A DNA stretch of 64,000 bases from the sequence record NC_005856.1. One strand, given 5' to 3'. Positions 37,877-39,432 of the stretch are shown piece after piece. Both the position numbers and the translations under genes were made by a program. Below the pieces are notes generated by a model. It was not told where the DNA came from and ran no database searches. It worked only from the letters and a program-made list of their open reading frames with translations. The DNA comes from Escherichia phage P1. Position 1 is the stretch's first letter, and the number at the start of each line of letters is the position of its first letter.

Positions 37877-37894
37877 TAAATTTATTAGTGTAAT
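37867..37894. promoter_or_regulatory. overlapping C1 operator pair
   Basis: Perfect ATTGCTCTAATAAATTT followed by overlapping inverted partial copy (ATTAGTGTAAT). Confidence 0.7.
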
Positions 37895-38057
37895 ATCGCC
37901 TCAATGAATCGTGATTTATAGAGCGATTTAGCTGTTAGCCGCGACAGGCGCGGCGGTAAGCATGGCTGGGCCTAGTCCTCCCAGACAAACCACCGAGTTG
38001 CCAGGTTGACCATGCGCCTAAGTGGCAACGCCGAAGTGCGTTACGAGCTTCCAGTTT

Positions 38058-38086
38058 GCCCATCTTCGGGTGGGCGTTTTTTCAGG
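38058..38086 (+). terminator. rho-independent terminator
   Basis: GCCCATC-TTCG-GGTGGGC hairpin followed by GTTTTTT. Confidence 0.55.
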
Positions 38087-38265
38087 GTTTTCGTCATGGT
38101 TAGCGACTTTGCGGCGGTTTAGAAACTGACCATTAAAGTAAATGCAAACGATGATCTGATGATGGTAGCGGCCTAAGAAGCCAGATGCCACGGGGTATGA
38201 GTCGTCCCCCGTCAAAAAATCGACCGCAGAGTGTCCCCGTCTGTGTATTAGGGAACGGGGAGGCA

Positions 38266-38342
38266 CAACAGGTAAGGGCGCTGGTGTGATTAACCAGATG
38301 AACGAGAAGGGGCCATCTGTTGGTCAGCGTCCTTTCCTGTTG
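38266..38342 (+). repeat. structured repeat element E1 (long imperfect stem)
   Basis: CAACAGGTAAGG ... CCTTTCCTGTTG arms; shares ACAGGTAAG 5' motif with E2 and E4. Confidence 0.3.
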
Positions 38343-38547
38343 CGTTTTCTTTTCAGCGTAACAGCGGTGCTTAACAGCACTTTGGGTACAGTTCCACGAA
38401 TTTACGGGTATATCCCGTCATGCTGAAGGCGCTAATCACGCTGGAAGCCAGGGTTGTGCATCCCCTGTTACCGAATTGCAGCCAGGGCGCGGTGCGCCGA
38501 AAAGCATACGGAGGTGGAAGCCCTCGCCGGAAACGTACCCGGCAAGT

Positions 38548-38623
38548 GATGGTGTAGCTCAGCGGTTAGAGCGGTTGACTGTTAATCAACGGGTCGATGG
38601 TTCAAATCCATCCACCATCGCCA
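38548..38623 (+). tRNA. tRNA-Asn (GTT)
   Basis: 76-nt cloverleaf folded by hand: acceptor GATGGTG/CACCATC, anticodon loop CTGTTAA, T-loop TTCAAAT, CCA encoded. Confidence 0.85.
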
Positions 38624-38625
38624 AT

Positions 38626-38701
38626 GCCGGTTTAGCTCAGTTGGTAGAGCGCCTGCCTTGTAAGCAGGATGTCAGCGGTTCGAGTCCGTTAATCGGCACC
38701 A
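38626..38701 (+). tRNA. tRNA-Thr (TGT)
   Basis: 76-nt cloverleaf: acceptor GCCGGTT/AATCGGC, anticodon loop CTTGTAA, T-loop TTCGAGT, CCA encoded. Confidence 0.85.
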
Positions 38702-38702
38702 G

Positions 38703-38789
38703 CACAACAGGTAAGGGTATTTTGCGACGTCGGAGATCGCCGAGCTTGGCAGAGGGTTCGAATCCCTACGAAGTACCCTTACCGTTGTG
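38703..38789 (+). other. tRNA-like element E2 (T-arm-like core in 16-bp stem; possible pseudo-tRNA or structured RNA)
   Basis: CACAACAGGTAAGGGTA ... TACCCTTACCGTTGTG stem enclosing AGGGTTCGAATCCCT; abuts tRNA-Thr; no canonical acceptor/CCA. Confidence 0.3.
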
Positions 38790-38930
38790 ATGAAGTGCAG
38801 CTCTTTGAAGCAACCAGAAGATAAGCATCTGGCTTCACAACATAAACCGCAGGAACGACCAATAAACGGTAGTCCGTATGGAGAACACCCCGTTGAGGAA
38901 GAGGCCTGGCCGGAACCGTAACCGGCACTA

Positions 38931-39020
38931 CAACGTTGAGAACACTGGCGTAACGGGGTCATATCCCAATCTACGAATAAATGTTGCGTTGCAGCGTGAC
39001 AACCAGTGTTCTCAACATTG
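38931..39020 (+). repeat. structured repeat element E3 (18-bp stem with conserved ACGGGGTCATATCCCAATCTAC core)
   Basis: CAACGTTGAGAACACTGG ... CCAGTGTTCTCAACATTG inverted arms. Confidence 0.35.
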
Positions 39021-39208
39021 TGGTGAATGCACAGGCTGATGTGCCGCAACTACAGTAGTGCGCGCTTTGCGGGGCTTGCTACAACCCTGTGTCGGAGTTC
39101 AGCACCGACCATCACAGTTTGATTCTCTGGCATGAGCATAACGCTGAAATAAGTCCAGTCTGGTGCGGCCCGATCACCCGCCGTTAGCTCCACGAAACGG
39201 AGCACGTA

Positions 39209-39280
39209 ACAGGTAAGAGCATTCTCCTGTAACGGGTTCATATCCCAATCTACAGGTCCACCAGGAATGCTCTTTCCGTT
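39209..39280 (+). repeat. structured repeat element E4 (10-bp stem, same conserved core as E3)
   Basis: AAGAGCATTC ... GAATGCTCTT arms around TAACGGGTTCATATCCCAATCTAC; 3' flank CCGTTGCGGTGAATGC resembles E2 and E3 flanks. Confidence 0.35.
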
Positions 39281-39432
39281 GCGGTGAATGCGGCTAAGCG
39301 CACGCGGGGAAATGGTTATATCTGTCCATTATTTCTCCTTATTTCCCCGTCCACGGTGGATAACCAGCTAAAGGACACCGGGAAGCACCCGGCACCGCAA
39401 CCTTATTTCCCAACCAGTAATGAGGTTAATAA

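Follow-up and report, generated by a model that had tools for sequence, protein, structure and literature searches.

Several described systems resemble a non-coding stretch of phage P1 that we analyzed here. Escherichia coli RNase III cuts stems of roughly 20 bp or more, and its sites lie between phage genes, as with the early sites R1-R5 of T7, and between ribosomal RNA (rRNA) genes, as with the stems of the rRNA operons. The tRNA cluster of phage T4 also holds small stable RNAs (species 1 and 2, rnaC/rnaD), integron attC sites carry the core sites RYYYAAC/GTTRRRY, and the tag of E. coli transfer-messenger RNA (tmRNA, SsrA), ANDENYALAA, contains N, D and aromatic residues that serve SspB and a terminal LAA that serves ClpX. 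The stretch in question, positions 37880-39430 of the 64,000 nucleotides of Escherichia phage P1 (NC_005856.1) that form our window, surrounds the genes for tRNA-Asn and tRNA-Thr and contains four long hairpins, E1-E4. The annotated Pban/Op72, the tRNAs and the gene order tciABC-trnI-ban identify it as a long untranslated leader, on the + strand, of the C1-repressed P1 ban operon. The four hairpins fall into a large family, not specific to P1, for which we coined the name LH (long hairpin). We propose, with a probability of roughly 45%, that LH elements are RNase III-type processing or insulator stems that would punctuate a polycistronic non-coding precursor. Another part of the stretch, 38085-38260, was missed by the initial annotation; judged by its sequence, it is a tag-coding tmRNA-like RNA in which no acceptor/T-arm domain was found. 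Membership in the tRNA, tmRNA, attC, miniature inverted-repeat transposable element (MITE) and STnc100 classes fails on at least one tested defining feature in each case.

All elements listed in the initial annotation were recovered, none more than a few bases from its stated position, including two canonical tRNAs (tRNA-Asn, 38548-38623; tRNA-Thr, 38626-38701) that both ARAGORN and Rfam recognize. The 5' motif that it had described as common to E1, E2 and E4 is the 12-mer AACAGGTAAGRG, found at 38267, 38706 and 39208; these three copies per 64 kb, against 0.02 expected, are all on the + strand and all within this region, and the 16-mer GCACAACAGGTAAGGG recurs exactly at 38263 and 38702. The proposed common core of E3 and E4 proved to be a 25-nt sequence, GTAACGGGKTCATATCCCAATCTAC, with 96% identity between its two copies (Table 1). 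A shared 3' flank exists as well (TTGYGRTGAA at 38785, 39018 and 39279), only weakly above chance (4 versus 1.08 expected). Compared with dinucleotide shuffles, all four elements fold with strongly negative z scores (Table 1), and they form a real structured repeat family. E1, E2 and E3 are the three top-scoring long hairpins of the whole window, and the 1.6-kb region contains three hairpins scoring at least 16 versus 0.03 in shuffles. The stems are longer than the 16, 18 and 10 bp first assigned to E2, E3 and E4, measuring ∼21 bp with one bulged A, ∼22 bp, and ∼19 bp with irregularities, respectively. Orthologues of E1 carry C38266T in 10 loci and its pairing partner change G38342A in 12, so the base pair is kept, and the U·U mismatch at 38273/38335 becomes C·A and remains unpaired. 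Phage D6 has a base pair where E3 of P1 has a C·A mismatch. E4 has a different 5' half in D6 and P7, where it is preceded by a tRNA-Ser.

Relatives of the region were found in 1,636 PLSDB plasmids and 35 phage records. We read 15 loci (P7, D6, SJ46, JL22, Ro157c2YLVW, P1-like plasmids, and SSU5-like phage-plasmids of E. albertii, E. coli, Klebsiella and Cronobacter) and, additionally, lambdoid and other prophage contigs from IMG/VR. An automated harvest of LH elements by regular expression and RNAfold returned mostly false positives, and hand-picked sets were used instead; scans with short degenerate patterns were swamped by chance matches in genome contigs and gave no taxonomic range there, and the viral scan was heavily filtered. 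LH elements occur in P1-, D6- and SSU5-like phage-plasmids, in lambdoid prophages and in virulent Ackermannviridae. Their length is 65-120 nt. The stem measures 19-26 bp in the 29 instances that we took from 10 phages and plasmids; its outer part pairs CACAAC(A)GKUAAG... with ...CUUWCC-GUUGUG and is followed by (A/G)UGAAKGC. An element starts 0-4 nt past the CCA of tRNA-Thr, tRNA-Ser or tRNA-Asn, or after a small 5-bp hairpin, and its interior is hypervariable, differing even between relatives as close as P1 and P7 (E2). No LH from P1 or the related loci matches an Rfam family, and our literature search, of partial coverage, found no description of these hairpins, nor of a tmRNA-like RNA in P1 or lambdoid phages.

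The initial annotation had left its reading to depend on structure being conserved in related genomes, and compensatory changes were found there. Sub-families of LH have unlike inner arms that are complementary within each sub-family (GGGCGCUGG/CCAGCGUCC, GAGCAUUG/CAGUGCUC, GUUGAGAACACUGG/CCAGUGUUCUCAAC, AAUGGGCGGUUGG/CCGACCGCCCAU and CACAGCGUUGAGCGG/CCGCUCAACGCUGUG), with mean pairing energies of -20.2 kcal/mol for cognate and -8.4 kcal/mol for non-cognate arms. In a curated alignment of 24 LH stems, 96.4% of the cells are paired, compared to 84.0% after shuffling and 37-58% when the partners are slid, and 10 of the 18 pairs change on both sides; none of 500 shuffles, a statistic that here and for the pseudoknots described below ignores kinship and uses hand-curated alignments, reaches the observed values. 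The stems contain 35 G·U pairs and a U·G pair is conserved in 16 of 23 of them, which favors one transcribed strand, and all copies are oriented like the tRNAs. In one locus (L050), a sigma-70 promoter match (10/12) and a terminator bracket a purely non-coding operon that consists of a tag module, two LH elements and a tRNA, all on the same strand. LH elements are thus structures conserved on the + strand, in transcripts that yield non-coding products only or that precede mRNAs.

As processing stems, LH elements, with about two helical turns in the + strand transcript, would be substrates of host RNase III. Cleavage at them would cut the precursor into tRNAs, tag RNA and spacer small RNAs, would free the 3' trailers of the tRNAs, and would uncouple these units from the downstream tciABC-trnI-ban mRNA. 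Stems of 19-26 bp do lie between tRNAs, tag RNA and spacers, downstream of Pban or of other promoters. Like known RNase III processing hairpins, LH stems span ∼20 bp, often with a mismatch or bulge, and separate functional RNAs of one transcript; they differ from these in that cleavage is predicted, in their conserved base and flank, in their hypervariable interiors and in their position right after tRNA 3' ends. The LH family offers a handle on the processing of phage tRNA arrays and on module exchange.

Several points weigh against a processing role. RNase III cleavage and the resulting maturation are both predictions. The 24-stem alignment was curated by hand (from elements picked as hairpins, with the bulged A taken out and substitute loops put in), which biases it towards pairing; the + strand fold is the more stable one in 15 of 21 elements, a moderate asymmetry; and mismatches and bulges are frequent and do not lie at fixed positions. 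The base and 3' flank are conserved more strongly than RNase III is known to need, which hints at a sequence-specific partner or a role at the DNA level, and a pure processing model does not explain interiors that are hypervariable and partly tRNA-like. Finally, SJ46 has lost E3 and E4, so both are dispensable. That loss and the hypervariable interiors would also be expected if the array were decaying junk, that is, functionless relics of tRNA genes and duplicated spacers retained by linkage to the tRNAs and ban; tRNA fragments do occur in related arrays, and 38346-38547 is the most variable part of the region among P1-like elements after E2. We regard this as improbable, since many compensatory changes maintain the stems in phage families with little else in common, conservation of the base and flank sequences extends from P1 to Ackermannviridae, and the spacer following E2 is 95% conserved across unrelated phage-plasmids.

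The initial annotation had also considered recombination sites or processed small RNAs, and both descriptions are still reasonable; the breakpoints of mosaicism do fall in hairpin arms. Comparing P1 with P7, D6, JL22 and Ro157c2YLVW, homology breaks in LH arms or flanks: JL22 carries an insertion bordered by a 29-nt repeat of the LH 3' arm, and the homology of P7 and D6 with P1 ends after E3 and resumes in the 3' arm of E4. SJ46 represents a deletion between the two 25-nt cores, which removed 38975-39228. This coincidence of the conserved LH base and flank with homology breakpoints makes them look like recombination joints. The tRNA content of the array also varies by relative (Asn-Thr, Asn-Tyr-Thr or Arg-Tyr-Thr-Ser). 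LH elements might act as DNA: imperfect inverted repeats used for recombination or as borders of cassettes, comparable to attC or MITEs, with the RNA structure a by-product. Such repeats would let tRNA and other modules be gained, lost or swapped. They resemble attC sites as 60-120-nt imperfect inverted repeats with AAC.../...GTT ends and a variable centre, a layout typical of such sites, and they bound units that differ among relatives; a bulged A after CAAC is common, and the CACAAC/GTTGTG ends recall the attC core. We consider a DNA-level role unlikely. Ordinary homologous recombination at any conserved 15-30 nt gives the same breakpoints, no dedicated recombinase accompanies arrays that span unrelated phage types, and the G·U pairs and conserved U·G favor a single transcribed strand. 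Integron attC identity in particular was rejected: the ends fit the consensus in part, bulges and mismatches are variable in position or absent (several LH are perfect duplexes) rather than fixed extrahelical bases, the cassettes would be tRNAs and non-coding RNAs in one transcript, and the flanks, where Cre (in P1) or unrelated genes are found, contain no annotated integron integrase. A dispersed repeat of the MITE or repetitive extragenic palindrome (REP) type was rejected as well, because every copy in the window falls on a single strand inside a 1.1-kb stretch; the JL22 insertion showed no target-site duplications and has the LH-arm repeat at its borders instead.

The hairpin interiors raise the question of tRNA mimicry. 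ARAGORN and Rfam call only tRNA-Asn, tRNA-Thr and trnI as tRNAs, and the tRNA model RF00005 gives no match to E1-E4 at E≤10. Run alone, E2 yields mascRNA (14.9 bits) and tRNA-Sec (14.6 bits) as its best weak Rfam matches. Its interior (∼38725-38768) combines a D-arm-like hairpin, CGACGUCGGAGAUCG, with a 4-bp stem and a GG-containing loop, located after the 5' strand of the long stem, and a T-arm, AGGGUUCGAAUCCCU (AGGG-UUCGAAU-CCCU), one nucleotide from the 3' strand, and it has neither an anticodon arm nor a CCA; E2 would therefore be a tRNA elbow on a 13-bp extension stem. E2-type copies in two lambdoid prophages (L132 and L154) contain identical copies of CGACGUCGGAGAUCG and AGGGUUCGAAUCCCU, and covariation is seen in the stem adjoining the T-arm (UUUUG/CGAAG, UUGCG/CGCAG and UUGGG/CUCAG). 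As structured RNAs co-transcribed with phage tRNAs, and in an elbow without an anticodon arm, LH elements resemble T4 species 1 and 2, mascRNA and the coding sequence (CDS)-less tmRNA of phage DS6A (PMC11915505); compared by description rather than sequence, E2 differs in its 13-bp extension stem and in lacking a free CCA end. The pseudo-tRNA reading of the initial annotation thus holds in part: the E2-type interior has a D-arm-like hairpin, a T-arm and a covarying stem, but no element scores as a tRNA. The T-arm-like core that it described is confined to the E2 type, the E2 alleles of P7 and Ro157c2YLVW having another interior. E1 has no tRNA-like feature, and E3 and E4 share only an anticodon-loop-like core that folds as GGG-(U/G)UCAUAU-CCC, a 7-nt loop on a GGG/CCC stem; from its sequence, this core looks closer to an anticodon stem-loop than to a T-arm. 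It presumably resembles the anticodon arm of initiator tRNA (anticodon CAU, three G:C pairs), a lead only, over ∼14 nt.

LH stems could then be tRNA-mimic scaffolds that display a variable interior (the E2 elbow, the anticodon-like core of E3/E4) as decoy or ligand for tRNA-binding enzymes, such as anticodon nucleases of defense systems or toxins, RNase P or modification enzymes, and that help the phage tRNAs and the tag RNA to protect translation. The E2-type interior with its perfect T-arm is kept in P1, D6, SJ46 and the two lambdoid prophages, T-arm-like hairpins also occur inside LH elements of L082, L108 and L181, the E3/E4 core CGGG(U/G)UCAUAUCCC presents U33-CAU-A37 in its loop, and the arrays are always accompanied by tRNA genes. 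Most LH interiors, however, have no tRNA-like feature and are unconserved even between the E2 elements of P1 and P7; the T-arm-like pieces could be decayed tRNA debris, like the tRNA-Ser 3' fragment of a Klebsiella oxytoca plasmid (L014); no tRNA model is significant on any LH; and the initiator likeness spans just those ∼14 nt. A scaffold role of this kind seems to us unlikely, about on a par with a DNA-level role.

Some tRNAs of the arrays deserve mention in their own right. Some anticodon-nuclease defenses target the tRNAs for Asn, Thr and Lys, and the tRNA-Asn and tRNA-Thr of P1 would then fit a counter-defense role of the array; our literature search did not confirm this, and a search on the tRNA targets of PARIS/AriB returned nothing useful. 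An 87-nt tRNA-Ser(UGA), tRNA-Sec-like in Rfam at 40-45 bits, just below gathering, occurs in D6, P7 and SSU5-like plasmids and not in P1 (L002, 2607-2693; L004, 2803-2889; also L007, L008, L011-L013 and L015). The CAU tRNA at 40133-40208 is annotated as tRNA-Ile2 and called Met by ARAGORN.

The tmRNA-like module upstream of E1 contains a tag reading frame (Table 1) whose GCA resume codon is preceded by the A-rich UAAAU. Across the family we count 16 distinct tag peptides, each of exactly 10 codons even though the flanks carry indels. Apart from that of P1 they include ANDDVVLMAA, ANDDLMLMAA, ANDDLMLAAA, ANEEVYLAVA, ANEEMYLAVA/AAA, ANDNQYLAVA, ANDNQCLAVA, ANDEQFLAVA, ANDTQYLAVA, ANDNLMMVAA, ANDDLMMAAA, ANDNVFLAVA, ANDNTFLAVA and ANDAQFLAVA. 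All start with GCA AAC/AAT GA. and end in (A/V)A and a stop codon, and identical peptides are written with differing codons (GTA/GTT, GCG/GCT, GAA/GAG, TAC/TAT and, for the invariant Asn, AAC/AAT). On the 5' side, an in-frame stop lies eight codons upstream in 63 of 82 copies, and 72 of 82 are without ATG, GTG or TTG. By their sequences, the phage tags keep the pattern of the E. coli tmRNA tag. Downstream of the frame follow two consecutive H-type pseudoknots. In a hand-extracted alignment with segments chosen by eye, 99% of the cells in helices S1-S4 are paired and two-sided changes affect 12 of 17 pairs; neither the percentage paired nor the covariation score was equalled in any of 500 shuffles. 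Unaided, RNAalifold recovers two of the four helices (S1 and S3). Whole helices are exchanged, such as ACGGGG/CCCCGU for CAAGG/CCUUG, UGAGG/CCUCA or GCAGGG/CCCUGU in one case and GUCG/CGAC for CCGA/UCGG, CCAG/CUGG or UCCA/UGGA in another.

The module compares with the coding piece of two-piece or permuted tmRNA (RF00023, RF01850 and RF04321) in its GCA resume codon after UAAAU, in a 10-codon tag of the form AN(D/E)x...(L/M)(A/M/V)(A/V)A plus stop with pseudoknots downstream, and in its 5' sequence UUCGUCAUGG (UUCGUC..GCGAC), which the beta_tmRNA model aligns with the tmRNA motif GGUUUCGACAGGG. It differs in that it has no acceptor stem with G3:U70, T-arm or CCA in cis, in being encoded within phage tRNA/hairpin arrays and not as a bacterial ssrA gene, and in Rfam scores that stay below gathering: against a threshold of 47 bits, RF04321 gives 24.1 for P1, 39.6 for L014 (E = 1e-5), 29.2 for phage Alf5 and 28.7 for L050, and further scores reach 15.4 bits for RF00023 and 13.1 bits for RF01850. 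The weak permuted-tmRNA matches, which together with beta_tmRNA matches recur below threshold at homologous positions in several loci, are due to the sequence of the tag frame.

A standard or permuted tmRNA with a hidden tRNA domain was rejected. With default settings, none of 16 loci gives an ARAGORN tmRNA call; the calls made with -ps80 include the tags and place the tRNA domain in dmt or in the non-conserved dicF-like part, and are not credible or not conserved. A duplex search for a partner of the module's 5' GUUUUCG gave no conserved site. A pattern search for a 7-bp acceptor, T-arm and NCCA with G3:U70 found none in P1, lambdoid or SSU5 arrays. The terminator hairpin was tried and rejected as the T-arm of such a domain, and among several candidate pairings upstream of the tag none covaries convincingly as an equivalent of PK1. 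Where the module has its own promoter, as in several phages, the promoter ends ∼8 nt before GUUUUCG, leaving no room for an acceptor strand.

The module is present in 691 of 5,426 complete E. coli genomes, where the features at its position are 'none' or 'hypothetical protein', and in 750 of 50,697 GenBank phage records, both temperate and virulent. Virulent carriers (Ackermannviridae, Felixounavirus and the Erwinia Kolesnikvirus) have it beside or within a tRNA gene cluster, and RNA annotation is absent in every match shown. P1 and the lambdoid phages are among the best-studied genomes, yet hundreds of phage and prophage genomes carry these conserved RNA modules without annotation. The tmRNA database paper includes 79 phage tmRNAs and the CDS-less form of DS6A and no tag-only form (PMC11915505). 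The tag RNA may serve as the coding piece of a split tmRNA or as a decoy that engages SmpB and the rescue machinery, or it may be a relic, which the conserved peptide disfavors; it may also be something categorically new. Our broadest proposal is a tentative one that we hold less probable than the processing role of the hairpins. P1 and ∼750 enterobacterial phages would encode a new tmRNA-derived class, with tag and pseudoknots and without a tRNA-like domain of its own, that joins or subverts trans-translation, either as the coding piece of a split system, for which E2-type hairpins or a D-arm-less G3:U70 tRNA-like of Felixounavirus are candidates for an alanine-accepting partner, or as an SmpB/rescue decoy; hairpins, tRNAs and tag RNA would then make up a translation-protection (counter-defense) cassette. 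A tmRNA-like RNA without a tRNA domain raises the question of whether phages tag proteins or interfere with ribosome rescue, and it connects the tRNA clusters of phages with quality control of translation and, possibly, with defense against tRNA-cleaving immunity.

Neighbors of the tag module differ between phages. In the Felixounavirus Alf5 (L311, 2665-2746), an unannotated D-arm-less tRNA-like sequence lies ∼40 nt after the module; its acceptor CGGGGCG/CGCCUCG gives G3:U70 and, with A73 and CCA, the alanine identity set, and it scores 31.7 bits as a tRNA in Rfam. It could be the alanine-accepting partner of the tag RNA or a coincidence, and Erwinia phage M7 has an ordinary tRNA-Leu in its place. 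Beside its module, Salmonella phage PhiSH19 (L312, ∼1760-1900) has a ∼150-nt tRNA-like that combines a GCCGUU/AACGGC acceptor with a T-arm and UCCA. The module of the K. oxytoca plasmid adjoins the 3' half of a tRNA-Ser-like sequence that has no 5' half (L014, 2378-2400). In a lambdoid prophage whose array is on the minus strand of the contig (L150, 1709-1862), a Sib antitoxin RNA of a type I toxin-antitoxin system (98.6 bits) lies ∼330 nt beyond the module and before the next LH. In the P1-like IncY plasmid pZ1323CEC0005_1-2 (L009, 1172-2500), an insertion sequence (IS) whose only gene is a TnpB-family RNA-guided endonuclease sits within the module, just 5' of the E1 homologue, at the equivalent of window 38122/38123, and splits the 5' motif from the tag; the idea of a TnpB omega-RNA was rejected, as this is a simple IS insertion with intact flanks.

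Table 1. Features of the P1 array in window coordinates, with the evidence for each.
Feature	Position	Strand	Evidence or remark
Pban promoters and C1 operator Op72	37851-37896	+	AF234173 annotation; start of transcription for the whole array
Terminator-like GC hairpin, UUCG loop, then U6 tract	38058-38083	+	terminator scan; ends the annotated 'dicF-like region' 37991-38092
Tag module: 5' motif GGUUUUCGUCAUGG..GCGACUUUGCGG, tag frame, two H-type pseudoknots	38085-38260	+	sub-threshold Rfam matches; 18-sequence alignment
Tag reading frame GCA AAC GAT GAT CTG ATG ATG GTA GCG GCC TAA = ANDDLMMVAA*	38144-38176	+	read from sequence
Two consecutive pseudoknots	38190-38260	+	S1 38190-95/38207-12; S2 38201-04/38221-24; S3 38225-29/38241-45; S4 38235-40/38255-60
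E1, LH	38264-38344	+	z = -4.2; directly 3' of the pseudoknots
Fifth hairpin ACGGGUAUAUCCCGU	38404-38418	+	z = -1.8; conserved in D6
Small 5-bp hairpin GCCGG-N8-CCGGC	38526-38543	+	4 nt before tRNA-Asn; direct repeat and fold
tRNA-Asn(GUU), tRNA-Thr(UGU)	38548-38701	+	ARAGORN; Rfam 74.5 and 72.9 bits
plp (38672-39049), upl (39050-39241)	38672-39241	-	GenBank open reading frames
E2, LH	38703-38789	+	z = -5.6; starts 1 nt past the CCA of tRNA-Thr
Conserved 66-nt spacer (E2 end, hairpin 38807-38836 with loop AGAUAAGCA, terminal CACAAC)	38776-38841	+	
Small hairpin GCCGG-N8-CCGGC	38909-38926	+	immediately before E3; direct repeat and fold
E3, LH	38926-39025	+	z = -6.6; 25-nt core inside at 38950-38974
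Small hairpin GCACA-GGCUGA-UGUGC	39029-39044	+	after E3; read in sequence
Small hairpin GCUCC-N7-GGAGC	39187-39203	+	immediately before E4; sequence and local folds
E4, LH	39205-39283	+	z = -6.1; 25-nt core inside at 39229-39253
STnc100/PasD-like segment	39280-39399	+	Rfam RF02076 33.4 bits (gathering 47), E = 1e-4; reaches the start of tciA

The window between 37850 and 39450 is 99.9% identical to the P1 record AF234173, whose annotation we mapped onto it. This record places the stretch between dmt and tciA, with tciA, tciB, tciC, trnI and ban following the array, and beside the tRNAs it annotates in these 1.5 kb two doubtful open reading frames (ORFs), plp and upl, and a 'dicF-like region'. 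From 5' to 3' we read instead a terminator-ended 'dicF-like' segment, tag RNA, E1, tRNA-Asn, tRNA-Thr, E2, conserved spacer, E3, E4 and an STnc100/PasD-like segment.

The ORFs called here had been suspected of being artefacts in the initial annotation, and no coding signature was found in either. Variable sites are spread over codon positions as 17/21/22 in plp and 5/10/7 in upl, with no third-position excess; a Pfam search in which tciA matches TerB gave no significant match for plp or upl; and plp overlaps tRNA-Thr by 30 nt. Both are broken or absent in P7, D6, SJ46 and JL22 and not annotated in P7 or D6, the SJ46 deletion and the ∼167-nt JL22 insertion inside plp disrupting them, and a simple scan found no sigma-70-like promoter on either strand. 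The alternative, in which the minus-strand frames plp (a putative lipoprotein) and upl are genuine genes and the hairpins are incidental, draws on the GenBank annotation, with its predicted promoters P1upl and P2upl, and on RNA-seq in which upl is among the genes up-regulated in a dksA host (PMC8201110), where strand and translation are unaddressed. This reading is close to refuted, and plp and upl are probably not genes. The LH and tag modules should be entered in RNA family databases to end such spurious ORF calls.

At the upstream end, a strong intrinsic-terminator-like hairpin stands only ∼170 nt 3' of Pban and directly 5' of the tag module, in both P1 and D6. Transcription of the tRNAs, tci genes and ban must therefore read through it, or a short 'dicF-like' RNA is made; Rfam gives no DicF match in the region of that name.

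At the downstream end, the last part of the leader resembles STnc100/PasD, a prophage small RNA family (bioRxiv 10.64898/2026.05.13.724894). The two occupy the same kind of prophage non-coding region, and the aligned stretch, covering model positions 31-147 of 206, starts at the LH 3' flank UGGUGAAU and ends with a small pre-LH hairpin and CACCA. The relatives D6, Ro157c2YLVW and pKFS-D08_2 score 38-44 bits with RF02076. The P1 segment differs from the family in its score below gathering, in running into tciA with no terminator found in between by the terminator scan, and in that the LH lies outside the model. Lambdoid arrays gave no STnc100 matches; only tRNAs and one Sib RNA were found there.

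The fifth hairpin reported by the initial annotation exists, although it is weak alone, and segment 38352-38476 was rejected as a fifth LH, its fold not being significant (z = -1.4). The spacer after E2 is 95.5% identical in Klebsiella SSU5-like phage-plasmids and belongs to the least variable segment among P1-like elements, in which 4 positions out of 136 differ; the spacer may itself function as a small RNA. A small + strand ORF in it (38787-38921, 44 aa) was rejected, as it has no Shine-Dalgarno sequence and its start codon is lost in the E. albertii copy. The small hairpins also recur. GCCGG-N8-CCGGC is a member of a repeated class, and the hairpin after E3, whose fold taken alone is not significant, reappears after LH elements in other phages with compensatory stems (GCACA/UGUGC, GCGCA/UGCGC and ACGCA/UGCGU).

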